Shown here: piece by piece, positions 186 to 11,847 of the stretch | Layout: every line of letters begins with the position of its first letter | Position numbering within the stretch: the first letter of the stretch is position 1 | Assembly (NCBI GenBank): GCA_041739995.1 | Contig: JBGSMV010000003.1 | Span: 1 to 11,994, forward strand | Direction of reading: 5' to 3' | Source of the DNA: Bdellovibrionota bacterium | GTDB taxonomy: Bacteria; Bdellovibrionota_C; UBA2361; JBGSMV01 | Length of the DNA: 11,994 nucleotides | Translations under genes and position numbers: made by a program | Notes under the pieces: model-generated | Told to the model about the DNA's origin: nothing | What the model saw: only the letters and a program-made list of their open reading frames with translations | Database searches by the model: none

Positions 186-374
186 TTAGCAGAGCGTTTG
201 GAGCGTCAAAGTGAGTTTGTTTGACGAAGCTGACCTACGGGCGTAGTTTTCCAGCCCTTCACTGCTCATTTTCAATTCTGGCTCTGGGTTGGCTTTCTCT
301 CGTATCGCCATGAGCTGCTCTTTGACTCGCTCTTTGCTTAAGAGCGCAGCTCTGATGCCATGCGTGGTTCTCAT
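186..374 (-). CDS. Possible small hypothetical protein (about 62 aa from ATG 374)
   Basis: ORF MRTTHGIRAALLSKERVKEQLMAIREKANPEPEL... has a charged, helical-looking composition and fills an otherwise empty region. Only a weak purine-rich tract (AGAGAG) lies upstream. No recognisable family. Confidence 0.3.
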   Translation of the reverse strand: MRTTHGIRAALLSKERVKEQLMAIREKANPEPELKMSSEGLENYARRSASSNKLTLTLQTLC

Positions 375-380
375 ACACAT

Positions 381-1158
381 TTCTCTCTTGTGCACCACCG
401 CCGTGTGACGGTGCGACTTAAGGATTTTCCCTGTTCTTCCTGTGGTTTTGGAGGTGCAACATGTTGCAACAGTGTCTTTGTGTCTTCCGGATGTATCGGA
501 GCATTGTCGTGCTTCAGCTCTGTGCCAGTGTGTTTGCCATGTCCGTGCCGATCTTGGCGCTTCTGCGCGACTTCCTCGGACTGCCGACCTGGGGGCTGCT
601 GCTTGGATTCAACCTGGCGTTGGTGCTCTGGTTGGTCGGCTCGTGTCGGACGCTCGCAATTGTTCGGCGTCGCGAAGGGGTGGCTCAGTTCTTGGGCGTC
701 GTGCCCATCCCCGAATCGGAATCGCCTCGCGAAGTGTTTGCGCTTGGCGATGGGATTCGGCTCATTCATTACGGGGTGTGCCTGCTCGGCCTGCTCGTTT
801 GTTGGATGACCAGCCTTGCGAGTTTTGGTGAAGCTCTGGGGTTCGAGAACGTCGATGAGCGTTCGGTGTTTGGAAGTGCCGGCATGGGCCCCTACTTGCT
901 TGTGCCTGCCGTGAGCTTCTTCGCCCTGTTTGGAATGCAGATGCTGTTCTTGGCGCGCGTGGAAGACTGGTACCAAGAAGTTCGTCGGCTCGTGGTACTC
1001 CCTGAACTGTCTCCATCTGAGTGGGCGCTTGTGCAGACTGCGTAAGCACCGCACCACCAGTGCGAGTGTCTCGTGTTCCTTGCCCATCTCTAGGAGTGCT
1101 GCGTAATTGGCAAAGGCCAGTCGCAATCAGCATATCGGAGGTGGTGCACAGCAGAGAA
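381..1158. repeat. 23-bp imperfect inverted repeat pair (381-403 and 1136-1158) flanking the membrane protein gene
   Basis: 381-403 ttctctcttgtgcaccaccgccg vs reverse complement of 1136-1158 ttctctgctgtgcaccacctccg: 20/23 identical with an 11-bp perfect core tgtgcaccacc. Confidence 0.6.
461..1045 (+). CDS. Hypothetical integral membrane protein (about 4 TM helices), 194 aa
   Basis: GGAGGT Shine-Dalgarno at 450-455, 5 nt before ATG 461. Hydrophobic segments IVVLQLCASVFAMSVPILALL, WGLLLGFNLALVLWLVGSC, IHYGVCLLGLLVCWMTSLA and YLLVPAVSFFALFGMQMLFL are separated by polar loops. Confidence 0.75.
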   Translation: MLQQCLCVFRMYRSIVVLQLCASVFAMSVPILALLRDFLGLPTWGLLLGFNLALVLWLVGSCRTLAIVRRREGVAQFLGVVPIPESESPREVFALGDGIRLIHYGVCLLGLLVCWMTSLASFGEALGFENVDERSVFGSAGMGPYLLVPAVSFFALFGMQMLFLARVEDWYQEVRRLVVLPELSPSEWALVQTA

Positions 1159-1293
1159 TATCTTGGAGAATTAATGTAGAAAGTCTCGTAGCCCGCCTTT
1201 GGTGTTTAACCAAACACAAAGTTTTCTGGTGGAATCATCGTTCCGTATTAGAGAAATATTCTACGCTACATTTGACATGTACATGATTCTAAC

Positions 1294-3777
1294 GTGACCG
1301 CGTTAGCAGGGAGCGTACTAAAGCGTTCCCAGGCTAGCGAGGAGGATGCGGACAGAGTCATGCAGCTCCACTCTAGCCAACCAAGAAAACAACAGCCGGG
1401 AGGGAATACCCCAGGGGGTCGTTCTCCTGGTAATGGGGTGCCATCAAACGACGGCACTCCCCCTTTCCAGACGATACCTATTCCCAGCCCCCAGGTGATT
1501 GGTGAATTGATGGTGATCGCTCAGAGAATTGGTGGCGACTTTAGAATGTCAGTCTGTGTAGGAAACCCTGGAGAAGGCAGTTTTTTCAATCCTGAAACAT
1601 GCGAAATCACCTTAGACCCTGTCCACATTGTACATAGTCCCCTTTTCGCGAAGTTTGTCGCAGGCCATGAAGGGTCGCATCGAGCGATTACGCTCAAACT
1701 CACTGACCTTGGGATGTCTGAAGAGGAAGCCACCTTTTTTCTCTCGCACATTGGATTTCATGCCGGATTCAACGGTTGCGAAGACAATGCGGTAAACACT
1801 TGGATGATCAAAGTCTTTCCTGGAATGGAGGGGCCGGTCAAGGCGGTCTACAATGAAATGTTCTGCCGGCCCAATGTCGAGGTGCAGCTCCCCGCTATCG
1901 AGCTTGCGCGTGAACAATTAGGCCGCTATCCGCGCTTTGGCCATTATATCTCTGAAATAATACGTGACTGGCATACCGGCTCATTCAGCCCAAATCTCGA
2001 TCCAGAAGTAGAGCGAGTGCTCAAACACACAATTCGCTCGGTTCGTAAGTACACCGGGGAGACTCCGGGAGAGCATGCGTCTCACTCAGATAAAATTGTA
2101 TCAATGCAACGGCGAATGGAGATCTATCGCCACGATGTGTGGCCCGAGCTTCAGAAACTAGTTGAGCTAGACCTGAAGAACGAGGAAGAGCATCAGCTTC
2201 TAAAAGATATCTTGAAGCTAAAAGAAGAATTACGGGAGCTCAAGCAAGAGAAAGCTGGAACATTTCAGAGAGGCGATCGCTATTCAGAAGCACAACGTCA
2301 CAAACGAATCGCCGAAATTGAAGCCAAGCTCTCTGAGATAGATAAGCTCGGTGGCGGGGAGCTTTTGAAGCTTGACGCAAAGCTCGAAAAAATGATTCGT
2401 GAGGCTGCTGAGCGCTTGGCGAAGCAGTACGACAAGCTAACGGAGGAGCTTGAAGCGGCAGAAGCACGGGTGTGTCAGCTTGATCAGCAGAGACACGCAC
2501 TTCAGCGTCAATTGCTGCAGGTTAAAGACCCAGAACTACGAGCTAAGCTGCAGCAGAAACTCGCTGAGAATCAAAAGGAACTCGCAGAGGCTCAGCGCGC
2601 ACTTCACGAAGCAGCGCGTAAACTTGAGGCAATGCAAGCGTCTGGCCAGGGCGGCGGGGGCGCGGGTGGAGGCATGGCTATAGATATGAGCCAACTCTCG
2701 CCTGAGACCCAAAAGGCACTGAGGAAGTTGTTTCAGCGTTTGCCACAAAGCAACCAACAGCAAATGCGAGGACGTGCTGAACAAGCACTTAGGCGCTTCG
2801 ACGATCAGGTTGCCAAGGATCTTGAGGGTAAGCTCAACGAAGGAAATCCATCGCACGCCGACAGAGAGCCTCGCTCACCACAGCCGCGGAACTGGAGTGC
2901 CTATGAGCAGCACATGCGTCAGGCCCTGGAAAACTTCGAGATTCCGCGAGAGCGCATGTCTGAGAGTCGGCGTAGTCAGAAAACGAGTGACTCGTCTCCA
3001 TGGATGCGAGCCATGCAGGTGGTGGGCGACCAGGTGACGCCGCTCTATCTTAGACTCAAGCGTTTTCTCAGACCACAAGAGGATCCCGCTTGGGAGCCAG
3101 ACTTTGCAAGCGGTGGCCGCCTCAACCTTGACCGCGTGATGCAGAGTGAAGCCGACCCCCGAGCGCTGGACCGTATTTGGGAACGTCGAGGCGTGCCGCG
3201 AGCGTTTGACTACCGCTTCTCATTTCTAGTCGACATTTCAGGCTCAATGCAGGGCGAAAAAGCTGAGGAAACCTTCAAAGGCTTGGTGGTTCTGGCTGAA
3301 GTGCTCGAGCGCCTCGAGATTCCGTACGAGATCGGTTGTTTCGGCAGCTTCTTTTGTAACTTAAAAGCATTCACTGAAAAATTGACCGATAGGGGGCGCG
3401 TCGCAACCGCACAAAGTCTCTTATCGAATGGAGGCGGAACCATGGATGCCTGGGCACTGGACCGCACCTACAAGCGCATGTGCGCCAATCTCGGAAAAGA
3501 CAACTTCATTGTGGTGATGACTGACGGTGAGTCTGGCATGCCAGGAGACTTAGCGGCGGTGATAAATCGAATAAAAAAGGAAAAGCAAGTGAAGCTGCTG
3601 GCCCTTGGACTTGGACCCTATACCGACTTTGTGAAGAACAGCTATCCGCATGCAGTCGGGAACGTAGAGATGCGGCTGTCGGATCAACAAAGGGCGAAAG
3701 GCGCGCTCGAATTTCTCGATGTAGTGACGATTCTTCTTGAGGACATGGTGGTAAATCCAGGGAGCTACGACGCATGA
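1294..3777 (+). CDS. vWA (MIDAS) domain protein with N-terminal HExxH putative metallopeptidase domain and central coiled coil (CobT/DUF2201-like MoxR partner); start may be ATG 1360
   Basis: 827-aa ORF. HEGSH at 1666-1680 is followed by NGCEDNAVN (1771-1797). An E/K/Q/L/A-rich heptad region spans about 2150-2640 and a Gly linker 2641-2673. GGRLNLDRVMQ precedes the vWA domain. Complete MIDAS: FLVDISGSM (D at 3232), GGGT (T at 3439), IVVMTDGE (D at 3523), then LLALGLG. GAGGAGG at 1339-1345 suggests ATG 1360 as an alternative start. Confidence 0.9.
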   Translation: MTALAGSVLKRSQASEEDADRVMQLHSSQPRKQQPGGNTPGGRSPGNGVPSNDGTPPFQTIPIPSPQVIGELMVIAQRIGGDFRMSVCVGNPGEGSFFNPETCEITLDPVHIVHSPLFAKFVAGHEGSHRAITLKLTDLGMSEEEATFFLSHIGFHAGFNGCEDNAVNTWMIKVFPGMEGPVKAVYNEMFCRPNVEVQLPAIELAREQLGRYPRFGHYISEIIRDWHTGSFSPNLDPEVERVLKHTIRSVRKYTGETPGEHASHSDKIVSMQRRMEIYRHDVWPELQKLVELDLKNEEEHQLLKDILKLKEELRELKQEKAGTFQRGDRYSEAQRHKRIAEIEAKLSEIDKLGGGELLKLDAKLEKMIREAAERLAKQYDKLTEELEAAEARVCQLDQQRHALQRQLLQVKDPELRAKLQQKLAENQKELAEAQRALHEAARKLEAMQASGQGGGGAGGGMAIDMSQLSPETQKALRKLFQRLPQSNQQQMRGRAEQALRRFDDQVAKDLEGKLNEGNPSHADREPRSPQPRNWSAYEQHMRQALENFEIPRERMSESRRSQKTSDSSPWMRAMQVVGDQVTPLYLRLKRFLRPQEDPAWEPDFASGGRLNLDRVMQSEADPRALDRIWERRGVPRAFDYRFSFLVDISGSMQGEKAEETFKGLVVLAEVLERLEIPYEIGCFGSFFCNLKAFTEKLTDRGRVATAQSLLSNGGGTMDAWALDRTYKRMCANLGKDNFIVVMTDGESGMPGDLAAVINRIKKEKQVKLLALGLGPYTDFVKNSYPHAVGNVEMRLSDQQRAKGALEFLDVVTILLEDMVVNPGSYDA

Positions 3778-4214
3778 ACATTGGTGCGGTATCCGATTTT
3801 TGTCGAAGCATGCAGCAATCCGTAGCCTTTGATGATCGTCTTGGATTGGTGCTTTGGGAGCAGCCAAAAAACAAGATGCCAATCCTTAGAGCCTTGGTAA
3901 GACGTTTGGGGGCGGACGTAATGAGTTACTGCTCTGACACTGACCAAGAAGTAGTTCGCAATATTCGAAGGAACGCCCTCACCTCCCGAACTTCGGTGCT
4001 TCTGGTGCGGGACGAGCCGATTGGGGAGTTGAACGCGCTGATTCGACGATTGGTATGCGTAGGCGAGCGGACTATCACGGCTCCATCGAAATTCGCTCTC
4101 GATCCAAAAGTTGTGTTGATGTTGTCAGCACAACTATATCGCTCCATTTCGACTGCACATCCAGTTTTTAAAATCGGGTGCGTACTATCGCGCACCGAGA
4201 ACGAAGTTCATTAG
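3774..4214 (+). CDS. Hypothetical 146-aa protein, probable degenerate AAA+ (pseudo-ATPase) core
   Basis: ATGA overlap with the vWA gene stop indicates translational coupling, and it ends 15 nt before the ATPase start. Motif order follows an AAA+ core: LVLWEQPKNK(MPILRALVRRLG), SYCSDTD, SVLLVRDE, LNALIRRL..GERTI, KVVLMLS. The gene call is solid; the fold call is inference. Confidence 0.7.
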   Translation: MNIGAVSDFCRSMQQSVAFDDRLGLVLWEQPKNKMPILRALVRRLGADVMSYCSDTDQEVVRNIRRNALTSRTSVLLVRDEPIGELNALIRRLVCVGERTITAPSKFALDPKVVLMLSAQLYRSISTAHPVFKIGCVLSRTENEVH

Positions 4215-4229
4215 AGGGGGAAGAGTAGT

Positions 4230-5942
4230 ATGCCTGAACCAGTACCGGCACCAGCAACGAATTCTAGTCTGTCGATGCAGCGCGCGCACGAGCGTGAGCT
4301 CATAGACCAAATTCGTCAGAAAGATCGACACGGAGATTTTCGCTCCTGCCTAGTGGTGGAGGTGCTTCGTCCCGGGAAGCAAACGGTCATTCACTTCGCC
4401 AATCCGTATCTCGAACAGCCAGGGGTAGTTTCAATTCAAACTTCGCGCTCCCGTGAAGAGGTGGAACGAATCGCGCAGAAAATTATCCCCACGCGCGAAG
4501 CCTGCGACATGATGAGTTTTCTGGCTGAGTGTTATGCCATGCGCCTCCCTGCCCTAATCGAAGGTCCAACGGCGTTGGGGAAAACCTACCTTATCAAGAA
4601 GTTCAACGAGCTGCTCTACGGCGAAGGTGTCGCTCCGCTAGACTTCTATTGCTCGGGACAAACTGATGTGGCGGAGCTCATGGCCCGCTGGGTTCCAAAG
4701 ACCTCCAATAAGCGCGAGCAGGATCTATGGCAGCAGTTCCTTCGAAGTGAAGATGGTCAGAAGCGTTTGGATGCGGTGGTCGTAGAACAAAATTCTCAGT
4801 CCGGCGAGGTTGCGCATGAGGTTACGATTGCGGCACTACGGCGCCTGGCTGAGGAGGTGGGACTCTCGGGTAAGACTCAATGGGAACTGCAGCTTGGCGC
4901 GGTCCCCAAAGCCATGCTTGGTTCCCACGACGCCAAGGGTGAGTTTAGCTACTCCGAAGATAATCCAATTGGCTGTATCCTGCATGTCGAGGAAGTGGGG
5001 CTCGCTCGTCCTGCGGTGGTGAATGCATTGTTAAAAGTGCGTGGTGAGCTTGGTCAAGTGTGCCAGGAGATTGAGCTGTGGGAGGACGGTGGGCGCCGTA
5101 TTAAGGCAGGCTCGAAGTTCTGGTTTGTGATGAGCACCAATCCGCCGGAAGACTACGGTGCGCGAGAACCGGTAGACCAGGCACTCGCTCGTGGCCTCGT
5201 GTTCCGTCGCTACCCCTCAGTCGATAAGAGCTCATATTTGATGGTAGCTCGCCGCTACTTTGGCTTTGAGATGGGAAATCGCCCCAAGGAACCACCGCCT
5301 CGCTGTATTCTTCCAATTTATCGACATCCGGAGCTGTGTGCTGAAGTTGCAGATTTTATGGCTGAGTTTCACGCCTGCTGCGTCGATCAGTGCCGCGGTG
5401 GTGAGAGTGGACGGGCGCAGAGAATCCCGGTGACCTTTGATGACATGGCGCGTGTGGCCTCTTTCCTTCTTACTTGTCAGGTACGAGACCACGCGACCGG
5501 AGGGTTTGACGTGGTGGAAACCCTACGGCGATCCGTTGAGCGCATGTATTTAGGAAGACTGCTTCCGGAGGAACGGGTTGAGCGCGGGGTGAATGTGCTG
5601 CAAGAAGCGGGTGCCCGGCCAAGTGGAGGCCAGGGGCTTACCTTAAGGGCAAAGTTGACGGCGCTTTTCGAGCAGCTGCTTGTGGGAGAGACCGGCATTA
5701 AAACATTCGAGCAAAAGAAGCTTAAACGTGCGGAGATTTTTAAGGTTCTTGTCGGTCGTGCGCACGACGCGGAAGAGCGTCAGCGCTTTGGAAGAGATCT
5801 TTCGCCTGAGGAGGAGCTCGAGTTCCGTCGCGAACGACTTAGATCGGAAGCCGGTCATCAGATTGGAATCGTCGAGCAACTTATCGCTCGGCGCACTCCT
5901 TCGCATGAGACCCATGGGGGTCGAACTTCCCAATCCGCTTAG
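4230..5942 (+). CDS. MoxR/dynein-related (AAA_5, midasin-like) AAA+ ATPase, 570 aa
   Basis: Walker A LIEGPTALGKT (GPTALGKT at 4563-4586), FYCSGQTDVAELMARW typical of AAA_5 members, Walker B ILHVEE (4977-4994) followed by LARPAVVNALL, pre-sensor-1 hairpin IELWEDGGRRIKAGSKF, sensor 1 FVMSTNP, YGAREPVDQAL. GAGGGGG upstream of the ATG. Confidence 0.9.
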   Translation: MPEPVPAPATNSSLSMQRAHERELIDQIRQKDRHGDFRSCLVVEVLRPGKQTVIHFANPYLEQPGVVSIQTSRSREEVERIAQKIIPTREACDMMSFLAECYAMRLPALIEGPTALGKTYLIKKFNELLYGEGVAPLDFYCSGQTDVAELMARWVPKTSNKREQDLWQQFLRSEDGQKRLDAVVVEQNSQSGEVAHEVTIAALRRLAEEVGLSGKTQWELQLGAVPKAMLGSHDAKGEFSYSEDNPIGCILHVEEVGLARPAVVNALLKVRGELGQVCQEIELWEDGGRRIKAGSKFWFVMSTNPPEDYGAREPVDQALARGLVFRRYPSVDKSSYLMVARRYFGFEMGNRPKEPPPRCILPIYRHPELCAEVADFMAEFHACCVDQCRGGESGRAQRIPVTFDDMARVASFLLTCQVRDHATGGFDVVETLRRSVERMYLGRLLPEERVERGVNVLQEAGARPSGGQGLTLRAKLTALFEQLLVGETGIKTFEQKKLKRAEIFKVLVGRAHDAEERQRFGRDLSPEEELEFRRERLRSEAGHQIGIVEQLIARRTPSHETHGGRTSQSA

Positions 5943-5958
5943 TGTTTTTAGGAGTACT

Positions 5959-7722
5959 ATGGCAGCGCTACCGCATCGTTCCTGGCCTGAAAGATCAGAA
6001 TCAACACTTCGTTTTGCCGATTCCCCGAGCATGCCGCGTCCGGAATTGCCAAAGGCCTTGTCGCAGCGAGCCGAGCACGTTGTCGACGCCATGCGTAAGA
6101 TCGAAGCGGATATGAGTGGACGCGAGCTCGGACTTGACGACCTTCAGCGTCGGCAGGCTAGAATCCTGCACTGGGGGGAGCATGTGCACTGGTTCGCCGG
6201 AGGCGACTTAGAGCAACAGGTATCTGACTTAAAGAGTTCATTGCTGAGATTCGGTTCCAAGGAGGCGGCTTCGGTGGCCTGCGAGCTTGCCGCCTGTACC
6301 CTTGCGGGCTCTCCTGAAGGGGCACAACTTGGACTGCGTCTGATTGGACGAGAGCCGGAAGAACGAGAGTTTGGACGACGAGCGCTACTGGCGACGCGAC
6401 ATGTGCGGGTCCTCAGTGGGGTGCTTGAACATGTGAGCCACTCGTGTGGGCATTTAGAGCAACGGGTCATCTCTGACTCGAAGCACCCGCTTCTGGCGCT
6501 CGCTGCCGTTGGTGAGTTGTTAGGTCCTGCCACATTCGAAGTTCTTGATCTGCCCGGAAGTGGAATCCAGGTTTCGGCAGAACAGCTCAGTTTGGTGACT
6601 CCGTTTATGGCTCATGAGAATCCGCTAATGCGTGCCACGGCAGCAAGGGCGGTAGCCTACGCACTGCAGTCTTGTCCTGAACATAGAATGAATGCGGATC
6701 TCTTGGAGGTGGTGCGTGAAAGGGTCGGGAGTGAAACCGAGGCACGTGTTCGATATCGCCTGCTTGGCATCGCAAAGTATTATAGTGAAAACGTGAGGGG
6801 CGACATTATCTTAAGCATGGTAGCTCGCGGCGACCCAGAAATTCACCTGCCCGCGCTCGAAATGACTGAAGGCCTTGAGCATCATGCGCTTGCTACCGCT
6901 CTATTGAAGAAATTTCAAAAGATAATCGAATCAGAGGCGCTCGGGGTTCCTACCCCTGTCCAGTGCGCGATTGCCAAGGCCGTGCGAGGTAAACTGACGA
7001 CCCCGCTTGAGGGCAAGCTGCGCGAGATAGTGCTCAATGGCGCCGAGACCTCAGGGAGGAAGCTGCTGGCTACCTATGCGCTTGCGGGGGTTCGCGATGA
7101 CGAGCTCGAGTCAGTTTTTTTTCGAAGAATAAAGGCTGCAGCCGACGATCTTGAAGCCGCAATGCCTGTTGCCCAGTGCTTACAGGTAGGCTGCCGAGAG
7201 GAGATGCAGAGTGCTCTGGCAAAGCTTGCGGTAGATCCATCTAGCAATAGATTGACGCAGTCGGTAGCGTTAAGCGCATTGCCCGCTTCCACCACACCTG
7301 CGGTGCAGCGTGAGCTACTGGCGATGCTTGTAACGGAAGATGACGAGGCTATGCTGAATTTGCTTGTTGAAGCGTTTCAACGCTTTCGGGAAATAGCCGT
7401 TCGCCAGGAGCTAAAAGAACTTGTGAGAAAGAACAACGCACGAGAGGAAGGGCTTGCGGCTGCTATCGAGATCTTGGGGAAACCGCAAGATGCTGCTGAG
7501 CTCCTGATGCTTCAGACGCAGCTCGCGGAAGGGTCCACAAGTTGTCGAATCGCTGCCGCTGCGGCACTGTGTCAGGGCGGACTCAATGGCATCGATAGCA
7601 AGAGGGTCTTCGCTCTCATGCACGAGGCGCTTAAGGTTGGCGCAACTACCTCACCCACGTTTCCTGTTGAGCGAGTTGGCTTTGCTTGTAACGCGTTCTT
7701 GCGATCAACGGGGCTGCTTTAA
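5959..7722 (+). CDS. HEAT/ARM-like alpha-solenoid repeat protein, 587 aa (start corrected from 5680 to 5959)
   Basis: AGGAG at 5950-5954 precedes an in-frame ATG at 5959, 16 nt after the ATPase stop. Repeated HEAT-like units: FMAHENPLMRATAARAV, VGSETEARVRYRLL, ARGDPEIHLPALE, AVDPSSNRLTQSVALSAL, LVTEDDEAMLNLLVEAF, LAEGSTSCRIAAAAAL. A/L/E/R-rich. Confidence 0.8.
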   Translation: MAALPHRSWPERSESTLRFADSPSMPRPELPKALSQRAEHVVDAMRKIEADMSGRELGLDDLQRRQARILHWGEHVHWFAGGDLEQQVSDLKSSLLRFGSKEAASVACELAACTLAGSPEGAQLGLRLIGREPEEREFGRRALLATRHVRVLSGVLEHVSHSCGHLEQRVISDSKHPLLALAAVGELLGPATFEVLDLPGSGIQVSAEQLSLVTPFMAHENPLMRATAARAVAYALQSCPEHRMNADLLEVVRERVGSETEARVRYRLLGIAKYYSENVRGDIILSMVARGDPEIHLPALEMTEGLEHHALATALLKKFQKIIESEALGVPTPVQCAIAKAVRGKLTTPLEGKLREIVLNGAETSGRKLLATYALAGVRDDELESVFFRRIKAAADDLEAAMPVAQCLQVGCREEMQSALAKLAVDPSSNRLTQSVALSALPASTTPAVQRELLAMLVTEDDEAMLNLLVEAFQRFREIAVRQELKELVRKNNAREEGLAAAIEILGKPQDAAELLMLQTQLAEGSTSCRIAAAAALCQGGLNGIDSKRVFALMHEALKVGATTSPTFPVERVGFACNAFLRSTGLL

Positions 7723-7730
7723 ATATCGGT

Positions 7731-7790
7731 TCCTTTGTGTTCTTTGTGGTGACACGCGGAGTTTTATTTCACCACAAAGACCACGAAGGA
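7731..7790. terminator. 22-bp inverted repeat between convergent genes (possible bidirectional terminator or REP-like element)
   Basis: tcctttgtgttctttgtggtga (7731-7752) pairs with tcaccacaaagaccacgaagga (7769-7790): 20/22 Watson-Crick, plus one U-G on the + strand, with a 16-nt loop. No classical U-tract. Confidence 0.6.
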
Positions 7791-7820
7791 GGGACGAATC
7801 CGGCGATGAAGTCAGATCCT

Positions 7821-8297
7821 TTAGGATCTGGATATAGAGCCAGAATACTCATACGTGCAGCGCTCGCCTCTGTAGGAGACCGTGCCCGTGAGTGAAACTT
7901 CACCTAGATTTCTTCGCACATTGAAGATCTTTAATTTCTCTTTGATGAGTGCTCCGCCAGATGATTTGGCGTGCAGTCCTCGGAATCTTCGTCCGGTCAC
8001 GTCAGTTCGTTTGAAAGTTTCCCAAGTACGTGCAAGCCCCGAGGTCTTAACATATTCAACTCTTACGCGGTTGATAGTCTTCTTGGCCTTAGAAATTTTA
8101 ATAAGTCCGTCAACTTCTTCCTTGAGGAATCGAATCTCATCGGTATCGCAATCGGTGCCATCGAGAAAGAGTCCGACGGACCAGCTACCTTCCCATTTTT
8201 CTGGATAGACGTTCTCAGCTCGAGATGGAGACGCGGTCAACAATGAGATCGCTGCGGTGAGAAATGTGTAGGATGCGATTCTGGTAATGCTGTTCAT
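7821..8297 (-). CDS. Hypothetical secreted protein, 158 aa, beta-rich, two Cys
   Basis: From ATG 8297 there is a signal-peptide-like MNSITRIASYTFLTAAISLLTASPSRA/EN. The mature part begins with WEGSWSVGL, has alternating beta-strand patterns and one Cys near each end (possible disulfide). GGGAG/AGGGAAG upstream. Confidence 0.75.
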   Translation of the reverse strand: MNSITRIASYTFLTAAISLLTASPSRAENVYPEKWEGSWSVGLFLDGTDCDTDEIRFLKEEVDGLIKISKAKKTINRVRVEYVKTSGLARTWETFKRTDVTGRRFRGLHAKSSGGALIKEKLKIFNVRRNLGEVSLTGTVSYRGERCTYEYSGSISRS

Positions 8298-8396
8298 CTT
8301 CCCTAAACTCCCAAACAACCTTTGAAGGTTCCAAAAGCGGTTATGGAGGAGGCACGTCCAAAGGTGCTCTAAAGGGTTTCTTAACAGGGCCGGGAA

Positions 8397-9017
8397 CTAA
8401 GCCGCTGGCTTAAGAAGGAGTTTCCGAATTTGGCGTGCCGCTTCGATCACCTCTGTAGGCCGAAACGAAATTAAGGCCAAGACGTCAGGCGATATCGGCA
8501 GCTCCATTGCCCTACCCTTGGCTGCGCAAGAGAACTCTTGATTTACCAGGATTTCGAGACCATCGCAGAGGTTTTCAAGCAAGTCAGAGCCTCTCCTCTT
8601 TGCCCACGCAACGTCGGACTCTGTGCTGGAAGATGCGATATCAAGCGCAAACTCTCCAAATTGAAGGTGGAACAGCGGATGGTCTAGTCCCCCAGTCTGC
8701 TTTAATTGAGTCCTCATCAAGAGAATATCGTAACAAGATGACGCTCGAAATGAAGTGTCCATTGGATGAACCACGCTGAGAGATCTCAGCAGCGAGGCGC
8801 GAAGGGCGAAGTCACCCAAGTAATTTGCGAGCTCCGGATCCGCCGAGCCTAAGGACTCCCTTAGGGCCGCTTCAGCGATAACACCTCGTGCTCCAGGTGA
8901 CAGTGCAGGCGTTATGCATTGAGGCGATGTTGCCAACCTAATGGGCGTTAACCCCCGATTCGGAGAGATCTCTCCGTTCGCGGCAGGCGGAACTATGGGT
9001 TGGAATTGAGGCTCCAT
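8397..9017 (-). CDS. Hypothetical protein, 206 aa
   Basis: Longest ORF in the interval, with a Pro-rich N-terminus followed by amphipathic helical-looking segments. No family recognised. Confidence 0.6.
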   Translation of the reverse strand: MEPQFQPIVPPAANGEISPNRGLTPIRLATSPQCITPALSPGARGVIAEAALRESLGSADPELANYLGDFALRASLLRSLSVVHPMDTSFRASSCYDILLMRTQLKQTGGLDHPLFHLQFGEFALDIASSSTESDVAWAKRRGSDLLENLCDGLEILVNQEFSCAAKGRAMELPISPDVLALISFRPTEVIEAARQIRKLLLKPAA

Positions 9018-9289
9018 TACTTCTAAGCCCTAAAACAAAACTAACAGCGAGGCGGCACGTCGTCGTCTGTATCGCAGACTCCTAGGAAAATTTCGTAAAG
9101 GTAGGCAGGCCCCGAGAGTCGCCGCTTCAAGACCTGTAATTTAAATCTAATCTCGATTCTAACCAAGGGCTTATCCCGAGAGATCTTCAGAAATTCACTT
9201 TTAAGCTGACCTTACGGCACGCGAATCTGAAGCAAGCTAGGGTGACGGGCAGAATAGTGAGTAGAACATCTGCTGTTTTTAATAGTGTT

Positions 9290-9829
9290 ATGCTTAAGCC
9301 TGTCTGTAATCGCATGGGAATCTTCGTTGGGCTCTCCGCCCTGTTGGTTCTCACCCCCTACTCGCAAGCGGATGCTTCTGGTTGTTGTTCGGCAACTGGC
9401 CTGGGCACTAAGGAGGTTCAAATCCAGTGCCCCAATGGTGTTCAAGGAAAAGTGAGATTGTCCGGAAAAAACGAGGCTGAATCTGCCGCCCTACTCCGGT
9501 TTCCGGCGGTGTTCGAAGCTCACGAGGACGCCGGCACGTATTTTCAGCCAGACAGAGAAGTAGCGGTTGTGAGAGGGAAGCTAGATGGAGCTAGCATCAT
9601 CCTTAGCACCTTTGCTTCGAATGGTACTATAAACTTTCTCCTATCCAATGAGGTGCGTGGAAAAGTTTACGTGACCAGTTCTCTTGGTGGAACAGAACCG
9701 ACCTGCGAACAGGCCGATGCCTCTGTGGCGATTTCTGAATCTGACCTCCCTACAGGGTTGTCCCTCGCTGATGTCTCGGGCGAGTCCAGTTCTCCCGATA
9801 GAGTATATAGCGCGCTATTTGGTTCCTAA
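9290..9829 (+). CDS. Hypothetical secreted protein (about 179 aa; start uncertain among 9242, 9290 and 9314)
   Basis: MLKPVCNRMGIFVGLSALLVLTPYSQA/DA resembles a Sec signal peptide. The mature region is beta-rich with four Cys and has a Ser-rich tail. Confidence 0.7.
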   Translation: MLKPVCNRMGIFVGLSALLVLTPYSQADASGCCSATGLGTKEVQIQCPNGVQGKVRLSGKNEAESAALLRFPAVFEAHEDAGTYFQPDREVAVVRGKLDGASIILSTFASNGTINFLLSNEVRGKVYVTSSLGGTEPTCEQADASVAISESDLPTGLSLADVSGESSSPDRVYSALFGS

Positions 9830-9937
9830 TCGAATAAATGTCGTTATCCGTAAACTTGAAAAAACCAACTAATCCTTAACGCAGCCTCATAATGGATAGA
9901 GTCTCCTCGCTGCTCGAGCGCAAGGGACTGCACGGGT

Positions 9938-10400
9938 TCACTGGATCTTCGAAGAGCGCCAAAGCAGCAGGAGCGACAAGCGTCTTCCCAAATGAAGAAA
10001 TGGATAAAGCATGCGGGCCCTGACTTTACCGTAACCCAACGAGCGCATCAGCTTCGCGGCAAATCCTTGGGGGCGTAAAGTGTTGGAGATAACCTGAAGA
10101 GCCTCGGCGCCTTGGACAAAGGATCCATCAGCGAGCAGAAGTACCATGCCCTTTTCAAAGCTGAGTTACTTGGGTTCCTGCCCATGAGAATGCAGTGCCG
10201 ACCCTTCGTTCTCGAGGGTGTTCGGGGCGAGTTTTTTTGGAAGATCTAAGCTGTCGACAGCAGCGCGCTCTCGCATGGAGAACAGCTCGAGCTTCGGAAG
10301 AGCCTCTCTGAGGCGATAGAAGTCAGCTGCCCGAGAGCAAAGCGGACAGTGCCCATAGTTACAGCAGTATATTTCTCCCGAACGAGCTCGACTTTGTCAT
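9938..10400 (-). pseudogene. DCC1-like thiol-disulfide oxidoreductase (DUF393 family), disrupted by a frameshift and an in-frame stop
   Basis: ATG 10400 reads MTKSSSFGRNILL* (TAA 10361-10359). The +1 frame continues YGHCPLCSRAADFYRLREALPKLELFSMRE...EPK*(TAA 10168-10166)LSFEKGMVLLLADGSFVQGAEAL...LYPFLHLGRRLSLLLL. Joined, this matches the DUF393 pattern hhhYDGxCxhC ... GMVL ... GAEAL ... LYP.L..GR. Confidence 0.8.
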
Positions 10401-10431
10401 GCGCCTTAAAGATGATAATGCTATCGTCTCT

Positions 10432-11145
10432 ATGTTAGCTCAGAATTTTCACATCGTCTTGGTCGAGCCTCAGGAGAGCCTTAATATCGGCTCTGTGGCC
10501 CGAGCCATGTCTAATATGGGTTTCTCTAATCTGCACTTGGTGGCGCCCCTAGATTATTTAATCGATCGAGCCCGGATTACCGCGTGTCATGGTGGTGCGG
10601 TTCTCGACTCGCTTACTATTCATGAAGATCTGGAGAGTTGTCTTGCCTCAATGAAAGTTGTGGTTGGTTTTAGCGGACAACATGGCAAACACCGTCCCGC
10701 GCACGTAATGCTCTCTGAGTGGAAGCACGCTTGGATGGAATCTCCGAGTGACAAGACGGCGTTGGTATTTGGACCTGAAGCAACTGGGCTTCGTACCGAT
10801 CATCTTGCGCACCTGCGTTGGACCGTGAGGATCCCTTCTTCGGAGGAGAACGCTTCGCTTAACCTTGCCCAGGCGGTGCTCGTGGTCTTGTATGAGCTGC
10901 AGCGCAATCCAGAATTGGTTCAGCCTGTAGTGCGAGAACGAGCAGAGGCGTCTGCACACTATCATCTCGATAGGATTGTGACCGAGGTTCTTGACGGCTG
11001 CGAATTCTACCGCGAAGGCACACCGGGACCCATTCCTGATCTGGTGAAAAACCTACTGCGTCGTATTGAACCGGATTCCAGAGAAATGGGAGTGCTGCTG
11101 GCGATGTTTGCGAGAATCAATTCGGCCATGAAGAAGCCAGCGTGA
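10432..11145 (+). CDS. trmJ: TrmJ/LasT-family SPOUT RNA methyltransferase (tRNA C32/U32 2'-O-methyltransferase-like)
   Basis: IVLVEPQESLNIGSVARAMSNMGFSNLHLVAP, ALVFGPEATGL and IPSSEENASLNLAQAVLVVLYE, plus the TrmJ C-terminal helical extension (LLRRIEPDSREMGVLLAMF). ATG 10432 fits the family N-terminus better than 10399. Confidence 0.9.
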   Translation: MLAQNFHIVLVEPQESLNIGSVARAMSNMGFSNLHLVAPLDYLIDRARITACHGGAVLDSLTIHEDLESCLASMKVVVGFSGQHGKHRPAHVMLSEWKHAWMESPSDKTALVFGPEATGLRTDHLAHLRWTVRIPSSEENASLNLAQAVLVVLYELQRNPELVQPVVRERAEASAHYHLDRIVTEVLDGCEFYREGTPGPIPDLVKNLLRRIEPDSREMGVLLAMFARINSAMKKPA

Positions 11146-11214: not shown

Positions 11215-11679
11215 TTAGTTTTCTCTCAGCTCGGCGAGTTTTTGATTGAAACGAATCTCCTCGCGTTCTCTCAATTGAACCAAGATGTCGAAAAGTTCGT
11301 ATTGGGTGACGAGCTCGTTCTCGATGCCGGCCAGTCGAGTTGACCACGCACTGGCCCTGCGCTGCTCCTCTGGTGAGCCTTCCTGATGCTCGGGTGGGGA
11401 GAAGTCAGAGGGTGAATCTGGTGGAGAGCTCTCGCCTGACGACGGCTCCGAGAATGGTCCTGAGAATGGTCCTGCGAATGGCCCTGGCAAGCATGACTGA
11501 GCGATTACCTCGCGCTCTACCTCTCGCCTTGATTGTTCCAATGCGTCGATTTCTGTGCCTAACTCGAAGAGTTCTTGGCGTATTTGCTGAACTGCAGAAA
11601 TTCTACCCAGACGGATGATGGCGCGCTCTCGTTTGCGCGAGACGGGGTTAGCAGAGGTGTGGGATCGCTCACTCGACAT
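11215..11679 (-). CDS. Hypothetical coiled-coil protein with a central Pro/Ser-rich low-complexity insert (about 154 aa)
   Basis: Two E/R/L-rich heptad helices (VQQIRQELFELGTEIDALEQSRREVE and LAGIENELVTQYELFDILVQLREREEIRFNQKLAEL) flank GPFAGPFSGPFSEPSSGESSPPDSPSDFSPP. ATG 11679 is preferred over 11691. Confidence 0.7.
   Translation of the reverse strand: MSSERSHTSANPVSRKRERAIIRLGRISAVQQIRQELFELGTEIDALEQSRREVEREVIAQSCLPGPFAGPFSGPFSEPSSGESSPPDSPSDFSPPEHQEGSPEEQRRASAWSTRLAGIENELVTQYELFDILVQLREREEIRFNQKLAELREN
11450..11485. repeat. In-frame 12-bp tandem repeat x3 (GPF[A/S] peptide repeat)
   Basis: gagaatggtcct, gagaatggtcct, gcgaatggccct. Confidence 0.85.
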
Positions 11680-11847
11680 AATGTGTCGCAATAAAACTGC
11701 AAGCCACTTCTAGGGTTAGTGTAACGGCTTCGCGCAATTGCCACTACCCTGAATTTTTAGCGCAAAAAATGGCGTGTTTGCGGCTTTGCTGGCGACATCT
11801 CACACCGACCCTTTCGCTGCGAATATTTCCATCTCATCGCGCGGGCA

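Follow-up and report, generated by a model that had tools for sequence, protein, structure and literature searches.

What does a bacterial operon do in which a MoxR-like ATPase is encoded beside a von Willebrand factor A (vWA) protein that carries a zinc-peptidase motif, together with a small ATPase-like protein and a HEAT-repeat protein? This question is raised by positions 1294-7722 of a stretch of Bdellovibrionota DNA, referred to here as the window, which covers the opening 11,994 bases of contig 1 in a genome of 3.8 Mb (81 contigs, 91% complete). The four genes are called g1 (peptidase-vWA), g2 (small protein), g3 (ATPase) and g4 (HEAT) in the following. The conserved unit is a triad of g1, g2 and g3, which is accompanied by an exchangeable repeat protein; the HEAT protein is the local version of the latter. 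The explanation that we tentatively prefer, with a chance that falls just short of even, is that the operon encodes a cytoplasmic ATP-driven protein-processing machine, the net effect of which would be a regulated, target-specific cleavage or extraction of proteins. The machine would belong to the class of AAA_5 ATPases with an adaptor that carries a MIDAS (an adhesion site that depends on metal ions); the same class includes CobS-CobT, NorQ-NorD, CbbQ-CbbO and midasin.

The open reading frame (ORF) calls place the four genes in one orientation, with a 4-nt overlap, a 15-nt gap and a 16-nt gap at the three successive junctions (Table 1), each of which carries a purine-rich ribosome-binding stretch. 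The g1/g2 junction is an ATGA overlap with GGGAG upstream; the g2/g3 gap contains AGGGGGAAGAG ahead of g3. At the g3/g4 junction the longest form of the fourth ORF (5680-7722) starts within g3, and ATG 5959, which is preceded by AGGAG, is the likely start of g4, giving 587 aa. The GTG at 1294 has no Shine-Dalgarno sequence and ATG 1360 is preceded by GAGGAGGA; the true start of g1 may be ATG 1360 instead of GTG 1294. The hairpin behind g4 has a folding energy of -33.1 kcal/mol (z -5.99), none of 200 shuffled sequences folds equally well, and a terminator-like site was called inside the hairpin region (7742-7761). A promoter scan of positions 900-8000 found no sigma-70-like promoter. ORF layout and folding thus agree with the initial analysis of the bare sequence (hereafter the sequence-only reading), which had seen four same-strand genes, tightly joined and closed by a hairpin: the interval 1294-7722 is a genuine four-gene operon.

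The same genes were then followed through a set of 100 loci, 19 of which were gathered from species genomes and 80 from metagenomes. Where at least 1,200 nt of upstream sequence is available (67 loci), the ATPase is preceded by a g1-family member in all but one (66/67). A small ORF adjoins the ATPase start in 75 of the 80 loci with at least 600 nt upstream, and a hidden Markov model (HMM) adds three more (78/80). For the loci L023 and L026 fused small-protein-ATPase forms were considered and rejected; the small gene is simply missing there. The small gene is therefore kept in 78/80 loci but HEAT in the fourth position occurs only in the window and its same-genus relative, and this identifies the unit as a triad plus an exchangeable repeat protein. 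The sequence-only reading had treated the four genes as one four-part arrangement. That view holds for the small gene and fails for the HEAT protein, which is replaced elsewhere by propellers and other proteins.

The fourth position was defined as a same-strand ORF starting no more than 300 nt after the ATPase, and was scored in the 40 loci with at least 900 nt downstream. By this rule a fourth gene is present in 30/40 loci, or 31/40 with the g4 of the window, which the rule overlooked. Of the 30 loci found by the rule, a single BLAST family accounts for 23 and a second family without a Pfam match for four; HEAT (L016), WD40 (L029) and a Ser/Thr kinase (L026) were each found once. Members of the 23-locus family end in WD40 or PD40 propellers or in helical repeats. 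The fourth-gene proteins of the main clade have in common a conserved N-terminal module of about 85 aa (the N-module) before their differing C-terminal domains. With the N-module HMM, 45 loci were seen to have one or more genes of this kind, 18 of them with two to four, situated either downstream of the ATPase or divergently upstream of g1. Locus L082 has four of them, three divergent upstream of the peptidase-vWA gene and one downstream of the ATPase (Table 1). The kinase of L026, a Bdellovibrionales locus, is encoded at 9737-10942 (Pkinase, 1.7e-16), and the small gene is absent at this locus too.

The motor of the cassette is g3. In the Pfam scan it passes AAA_7 (7.7e-6, 26.0 bits against a cut-off of 25.8) and remains below the cut-off for AAA_5 (15.3 bits against 22); many of its homologues bear a precomputed PF07728. 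A search of 5.8 billion proteins returned 111 relatives with 38-48% identity, several of which are named 'MoxR-like ATPase' by JGI. An alignment of 24 ATPases keeps a Walker A motif GPTAxGKT, a Walker-B-like H-h-E/Q-E-V-G, a sensor-1 STNP and two arginines; the corresponding elements of g3 (GPTALGKT, HVEEVG, STNP and R312/R321) are invariant or almost so. Among the full-length ATPases of the fetched loci, GK[ST] is present in 71/71 and the Walker-B-like motif in 68/71. When the ATPase profile was compared with the PDB, midasin gave the lowest whole-sequence E-value (1e-8), a sum over six modules of 3-11 bits, each of which has an E-value above 1 when taken singly; McrB (16.6 bits), CbbQ (14.8 bits) and then NorQ followed. 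Because the midasin value adds up six weak modules, g3 is no closer to midasin than to McrB or CbbQ at the level of the module. With its one AAA module g3 is an AAA_5-type ATPase of the MoxR/midasin/dynein clade, the activity of which is predicted from its motifs.

The C-terminal part of g1 is a vWA domain (Pfam VWA, E 3.6e-6, over the cut-off) with a complete MIDAS. It also passes CobT_C (PF11775; E 9e-5, 22.7 bits against a cut-off of 21), a model that hits 12 of 13 family members. In an alignment of these 13 members the MIDAS residues D647-x-S649-x-S651, T716 and D744 are invariant. The profile of this alignment gave 138 matches in the PDB, with the MIDAS domain of midasin (6qt8_A) at the top (1.9e-14, 56 bits, profile positions 529-740); the match takes in about 80 positions ahead of the vWA core. 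CobT (8e-12), NorD (3.5e-9) and integrin I domains come next.

The N-terminal domain of g1 contains HEGSH, an HExxH motif, at residues 125-129. H125, E126, G127, H129, E163 and D164 are invariant in the alignment of 13, and either E163 or D164 may be the third zinc ligand. Over 45 full-length ORFs of the family HExxH is found in 44/45, the downstream ED in 44/44 and DxSxS in 45/45; the sole ORF without HExxH is a call that starts beyond the motif. An AlphaFold2 (AF2) model of the domain (246 residues, alignment of 40 sequences) has a pLDDT (predicted local distance difference test) of 94.0 and a pTM (predicted template modelling score) of 0.89. The leading matches in fold searches against the PDB are nearly all zinc peptidases: selecase (Z 6.7-6.8, 103 aligned, root-mean-square deviation (rmsd) 4.2), abylysin (6.5), HtpX (6.5), BepA (6.2), ZMPSTE24 (5.8), M1 aminopeptidases, ArdC and Wss1. 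Profile searches of PDB sequences with the same domain returned proabylysin alone, at E 0.69. Taken together, the modest fold scores and the invariant motif support a zincin domain.

The domain has a second set of relatives. In a Foldseek search of predicted viral structures it matches best to phage VWA proteins 570-810 aa in length, in their N-terminal parts (E 3e-5 to 1e-2, TMq at most 0.65); several of these proteins are named CobT subunit or CobT-like. These matches suggest that g1 has the body plan of a CobT-like adaptor with the zinc signature intact. No Pfam CobT N-domain was detected in the 13 family members at E<=0.5. Solved CobT and NorD structures are absent among the 50 matches listed for each of three PDB fold searches with the g1 N-domain, which does not speak for a difference in fold. 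When the N-domain was run by phmmer against the full library, the search yielded 211 cluster representatives; in the 150 that were listed the match is near the N-terminus, and these proteins are mostly 600-1,000 aa long, with some shorter ones that may be fragments. A long coiled coil joins the zincin and MIDAS domains of g1, no signal peptide is visible by eye, and the family has one copy in the genome of the window. The MIDAS adhesins of Bdellovibrio (Bd0875) were set aside as a model: the part of the source that was available mentions neither a protease nor a partner ATPase, and a signal peptide is not apparent in g1.

The small protein g2 has no Pfam match, and a length-limited, word-seeded search of 5.8 billion proteins returned the query alone. 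It was modelled with AF2 from an alignment of 65 small proteins in the same position (pLDDT 76.7, pTM 0.73) as a five-stranded beta-alpha-beta core. Foldseek gave 11 matches at E<=1e-3, every one of them to an AAA+ protein: dynein heavy chains (dynein at 1e-4), Rubisco activase, Hsp104 and NSF. The VIA aligner found 56 chains with Z of at least 8; a motor module of dynein ranks first (Z 10.7, 124 aligned, rmsd 3.2), and the others include Rubisco activase (10.3), CbbQ (8.7), Rea1 (8.5), RFC, STAND proteins, NSF-D2, Mdn1 and NorQ. A look-up in the Atlas is a weak lead, with a best score of 0.82 and AAA families at ranks 9 and 26 only. The P-loop GxxxxGK[ST] is present in 0/84 small ORFs; g2 retains a Walker-B-like VLLVRDE. 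The model and the structural matches support the view that g2 is an AAA+-like core without the phosphate loop, a 'pseudo-AAA' protein.

The assignment of g4 is built from several pieces. Its own HEAT_2 match is below the cut-off (E 0.0054, 17.4 bits against 27.7), and the same 5.8-billion-protein search, with the limits given above, again returned the query alone. Its protein-language features in the Atlas score 0.93 to HEAT clusters. It aligns with the fourth-gene protein of the same-genus locus L016 (BLASTP 2e-06), which itself passes HEAT_2 (1e-9, 39 bits). These findings support a HEAT solenoid for g4, of which the genome of the window has one copy. L016 differs from the window in that two tandem HEAT genes follow the ATPase (2278-4134 and 4131-5885) instead of one; the second encodes a helical region ahead of the repeats. 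The identities that the sequence-only reading had given to the four products, namely a peptidase-vWA protein, a pseudo-AAA protein of 146 aa, a MoxR-like AAA+ ATPase and a HEAT protein, are hence all supported by motifs, profiles, protein-language features or models.

Table 1. Features of the operon in the window, and the N-module genes of locus L082 (numbered within that locus).
Feature	Position	Strand	Description or basis
g1	1294..3777	+	827 aa from GTG 1294; zincin-like N-domain, coiled-coil linker, C-terminal MIDAS/vWA
g1, zincin fold and helical extension (predicted)	1456..2193	+	residues 55-300; HEGSH at nt 1666-1680; E163-D164 downstream
g1, vWA with MIDAS, conserved C-terminal helix and tail	3046..3774	+	residues ~585-827; DxSxS at nt 3232-3246
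g2	3774..4214	+	146 aa; AAA+-like alpha/beta core (model) without Walker A loop
g3	4230..5942	+	570 aa; AAA_5-type ATPase; Walker A GPTALGKT at nt 4563-4586
g4	5959..7722	+	587 aa; probable HEAT/ARM-like solenoid; ~100-aa non-repeat N-terminal region; variable fourth-gene position
Long hairpin at operon end, probable terminator	7726..7797	+	folding energy and shuffles
L082, N-module genes	1-621, 661-1758, 1798-2889	-	N-module HMM
L082, N-module gene	7482-8261	+	N-module HMM

From these parts the preferred explanation, the processing machine, can be spelled out as follows. The ATPase g3 would form a ring, on which the vWA domain of g1 and its conserved C-terminal tail would dock, like NorD on NorQ or the MIDAS of midasin on its ring. 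In midasin the MIDAS domain binds the ligands and the ring supplies the force. The g2 protein may join or cap the ring as a regulatory subunit that does not hydrolyse ATP. Hydrolysis by g3 would pull or twist the coiled-coil linker of g1 and in this way switch, position or gate the zincin domain. The repeat protein, HEAT here and beta-propellers elsewhere, would be an exchangeable receptor that docks via its N-terminal region and brings the target to the MIDAS site and the protease; the output would be protein cleavage or extraction that is both regulated and specific for the target. By analogy with the class we infer the grip of the MIDAS, the cleavage by the HExxH domain and the receptor role of the HEAT protein, as the sequence-only reading had done.

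The distribution of the cassette bears on what such a machine could be for. The ATPase occurs in 7/41 close relatives, including the genome of the window, and in 13/124 genomes of the phylum; these 13 belong to a single order, in which some genomes have two or three copies. Examples are G029 (contigs C8 and C29) and G122 (on three contigs), whose ATPase copies are diverged, which suggests paralogous cassettes. Among 401 sampled Patescibacteria only the seed genome has it. The loci are labelled Bdellovibrionota, Saccharibacteria, Parcubacteria, Patescibacteria and Geothermincola, and, as metagenome-assembled genomes (MAGs), Gammaproteobacteria, Pseudomonadota and Deltaproteobacteria; one protein is labelled Aenigmatarchaeota. 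One MAG labelled Gammaproteobacteria with a main-clade cassette (L022, genome G127) has a genome of about 0.7 Mb, which fits a tiny-genome bacterium better. The Parcubacteria copy appears decayed: its peptidase-vWA gene is broken up into two ORFs (L021, 4910-5353 and 5691-7316), and its ATPase match (G125, contig C1, 20641-22275) has an in-frame TAA. A tree of the ATPases, which is a quick tree only, shows two clades, one of 49 with short branches and one of 14 that has long branches and is dominated by Bdellovibrionota; the ATPase of the window is in the latter on a long branch, together with its same-genus partner (support 99). In this same-genus pair of genomes TrmJ is 63% identical and the ATPase 48%. 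The accessory parts appear to evolve fast, with 0 homologues for g2 and g4 versus 111 for the ATPase in the 5.8-billion-protein search.

Three features favour a role in conflict or in the response to threats over a housekeeping role: the cassette is spread patchily, its accessory parts evolve fast, and its receptors have paralogues. The low-frequency occurrence in predatory Bdellovibrionota and in Patescibacteria with tiny genomes suggests that conflicts between cells or with mobile elements are involved. The sequence-only reading had likewise considered a conflict system; the defence models lend it no match. No PADLOC 2.0 model matches g2, g3 or g4 and no NCBIfam defence model was hit. The only PADLOC hit of g1 is LmuB (2.6e-4), which covers coiled-coil residues 292-446 and is an artefact.

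Several observations weigh against the processing machine or its role in conflict. A role in defence has no direct support, as PADLOC has no real match; the neighbours of the cassette in other genomes are housekeeping genes, and no ATPase relative occurs in viral contigs, phages or plasmids. The small gene is absent from L023 and L026, and nine of the 40 loci have no fourth gene by the rule. The N-module HMM of the main clade does not match the g4 of the window, so that the equivalence of g4 to the beta-propeller genes is argued from position and architecture alone. The match of g1 to the zincin fold is modest (every Z below 8), and the CobT-type relatives of g1 are known as adaptors, not as proteases. 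Finally, the small proteins fall into three sequence classes, between which hhalign finds no significant similarity (E 0.22-0.52), which means that sequence does not establish their homology; the main-class HMM matches neither g2 nor the second class, and the g2 model leans on assumed homology because its alignment mixes all three. The placement of L024 and L025, which have main-class small proteins, inside the Bdellovibrionota-dominated clade of the ATPase tree and the way in which small-protein identity tracks that of the ATPase at short range (77% at 84% ATPase identity, dropping to 23% at 35%) speak for common descent of the classes with fast divergence.

The alternative that survives best, unlikely as we consider it, makes the repeat proteins clients instead of receptors. 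The MIDAS would grip their shared N-terminal region, and the machine would extract, unfold or clip them, or mature them by removal of a leader. Midasin pulls WD40 assembly factors off pre-ribosomes, and two of the WD40 proteins that it binds as ligands, Ytm1 and Rsa4, have a ubiquitin-like domain at the N-terminus. The vWA of g1 is most like the MIDAS domain of midasin, most of the fourth genes encode WD40 or PD40 propellers, and a constant N-terminal module precedes the variable domains, with two to four paralogues in 18 loci; all of this would fit clients well. Against it stand the failure of the N-module HMM on the g4 of the window and the consideration that a machine with only its own variable neighbours as clients lacks an evident purpose.

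A related proposal goes further, and we regard it as speculative and rather doubtful: the cassette would be a free-standing prokaryotic counterpart of midasin, in which the MIDAS grips a short, acidic N-module shared by swappable WD40, PD40 or HEAT proteins, the ring together with its dead partner pulls the linker, and the zincin then cuts. If true, this would describe a programmable ATP-gated protease with targets set by the repeat protein, and it would offer a living model for a pre-eukaryotic origin of the logic by which the MIDAS of midasin recognizes WD40 ligands.

It is quite improbable, in our estimate, that the operon encodes a chaperone for the insertion of a cofactor or metal into an unlinked client in the manner of CobST, NorQD or CbbQO, with an HExxH domain that binds metal or is structural and is not a protease. 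CobT_C is over its cut-off in g1 and hits 12/13 family members, CobT and NorD are among the best solved relatives of the g1 vWA, and the fold of the g1 N-domain is shared with CobT-like proteins of phages. Furthermore, in the available portions of the sources (Kaur 2020; PMC13036017) all characterised members of the class remodel a client and none cleaves. However, no cob, nor, cbb or cox gene is found in the window or beside the related loci examined, and what constantly accompanies the pair is no enzyme but a dead AAA-like subunit and repeat proteins. For the window this agrees with the sequence-only reading, which had seen no such client; the Pfam scan of the ORFs found none either. The retention of the full HExxH...ED signature in 44/45 family members argues for catalysis and against a mere chaperone, as far as motifs can predict it.

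The last alternative, that the operon is a mobile-element module or the remnant of a phage-derived pair that serves the assembly of virions or of the element rather than the cell, is very improbable: the phage VWA/CobT-like proteins of 570-810 aa that best match the g1 N-domain among viral structures, the match of the g1 vWA region to phrog_1576 (1.5e-10), the very patchy distribution (13/124 genomes of the phylum, 1/401 Patescibacteria) and the jumbo-phage pair described in the accessible part of PMC7824862 favour it, but searches of 2.9 million viral contigs, 50,697 phage records and 72,556 plasmids turned up no relative of the ATPase, the window has no phage, integrase or tRNA gene (the latter by a tRNA scan), g2, g3 and g4 have no PHROG match and the composition along the operon is unremarkable.

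The surroundings of the operon are seen from one side only, since the window begins at the contig end and the view upstream stops at base 1. Four DNA sequencing runs, all from a single study, and no RNA run are listed for this sequence. Seven flanking ORFs were scanned, and a SpoU/TrmJ methylase (10399-11145) is the sole Pfam family among them. In the first kilobase the region 360-1133 shows a strong AT skew (-0.32) and has ORFs that overlap on opposite strands: 461-1045 (+) encodes a hydrophobic, membrane-like protein of 194 aa, and 371-1126 (-), which overlaps it, encodes 251 aa. Neither has a Pfam family and only one of them is presumably the gene. Downstream, the ORFs 7821-8318 (-), 8397-9017 (-) and 9242-9829 (+) are orphans without a Pfam family; the products of the first and the third begin with signal-peptide-like hydrophobic stretches. 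The ORF 11215-11691 (-) encodes 158 aa with Pro/Ser/Phe-rich repeats in mid-protein and matches no family.

To our knowledge, AAA_5 and vWA pairs are widespread, but the workings of only a few have been explained, and each of these few acts by remodelling an enzyme encoded nearby. The cassette adds to such a pair an apparently intact zinc protease on the adaptor, a subunit that is predicted from its model to be a dead ATPase-like protein and a repeat protein that can be exchanged but keeps the same handle at its N-terminus. If the processing machine is real, it would be a new kind of ATP-dependent, receptor-guided protease with parts that differ from those of FtsH, Lon and Clp. Among solved structures the MIDAS of g1 is the closest bacterial relative found for that of midasin, and beta-propellers are the usual partners, as they are for midasin, so that the cassette could inform on the origin of the eukaryotic machine. 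All four proteins look soluble and are small enough to be expressed.

How does the cassette compare with known systems? The vWA-MoxR ternary systems (Kaur et al. 2020) comprise, in the part of the description that was available, types with VMAP, iSTAND, FtsH and beta-propellers; the order is third component, MoxR, vWA, and effectors are C-terminal to the vWA. The cassette resembles them in joining a MoxR-vWA pair to a third component, and the iSTAND type has an inactive P-loop NTPase in this place; the predicted dead P-loop NTPase g2 would be a thematic parallel to it and no more. Variable repeat or propeller sensors, paralogues, fast-evolving parts and a patchy spread are also features of these systems and of the Esr pathway, as far as the excerpts (PMC13622651; Kaur 2020) go; according to the accessible text of the former, a 2026 preprint, propeller sensors act via MoxR and vWA proteins. 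The Ser/Thr kinase in the fourth position of one related locus is a further likeness to the ternary conflict systems. The window differs from them in its order of peptidase-vWA, small protein, ATPase and repeat protein, in the catalytic domain that is N-terminal to the vWA, and in g2, which is a bare core of 146 aa without effector or adaptor domains. The layout thus fails to fit the ternary systems, the partners of the cob, nor, cbb and cox systems are missing, and the locus does not map onto a characterised system.

The sequence-only reading had not recognised the arrangement from any named system, and this stands in so far as we found no description of the cassette in the literature; it needs to be qualified in that a metallopeptidase-vWA and MoxR pair has been noted for jumbo phages (Iyer et al. 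2021, PMC7824862, of which a part was available). According to that part, an N-terminal metallopeptidase is fused to a vWA and paired with a MoxR-type ATPase there too. The window differs in that a sequence match to its ATPase is lacking among phage records and viral contigs, and that the PHROGs match nothing in g3 and only the vWA part of g1. Pfam scans of the window and of the g1 family contained no DUF2201-type family.

NorQ-NorD and CbbQ-CbbO share with the cassette an AAA_5 hexamer and a vWA adaptor, and NorD matches the g1 profile at 3.5e-9. In NorQD, as described in the consulted section of PMC13036017, a vWA finger enters the pore of the ring, the C-terminus of the adaptor contacts the ring and the linker is remodelled; g1 also has a conserved C-terminal tail and a long linker. 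In contrast to the cassette, a client enzyme adjoins these systems, and they have no protease domain, dead AAA-like subunit or repeat partner.

CobS-CobT is similar in combining an AAA_5 ATPase with an adaptor of 600-800 aa in which a charged linker connects an N-domain to a C-terminal vWA. The CobT_C score of g1 is over the cut-off, solved CobT matches the g1 profile at 8e-12, and the g1 N-domain matches 220-270 columns of phage CobT-like proteins (best named match E 4.4e-4, TMq 0.65; another 1.3e-3). The differences are that g1 retains an intact HExxH...ED and the Pfam N-domain of CobT goes undetected in the 13 members, that CobN and other cob genes are lacking in the window and among the downstream neighbours scanned in related loci, that the cassette of the window adds a dead AAA-like subunit and a repeat protein, and that g3 exceeds its counterpart by about 250 aa, being extended at both termini and carrying an insert that separates Walker A from Walker B.

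Midasin (Rea1) has no protease domain and is a single chain of about 4,900 residues with six AAA modules, whereas here the active module and the dead core are separate genes. The likeness to parts of midasin that the sequence-only reading had pointed out is nevertheless evident, strongly for the g1 MIDAS against 6qt8_A and more weakly for the ATPase profile. No solved structure matches the g1 vWA better than the midasin MIDAS, and this match extends into the segment ahead of the vWA core; for the ATPase profile, too, the lowest whole-sequence E-value is that of midasin; g2 resembles the degenerate ring modules of dynein and midasin; and a long charged linker lies between motor and MIDAS in both. 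Together, these comparisons indicate that the operon is a variant of the AAA_5 plus MIDAS-adaptor class and not a categorically new system.

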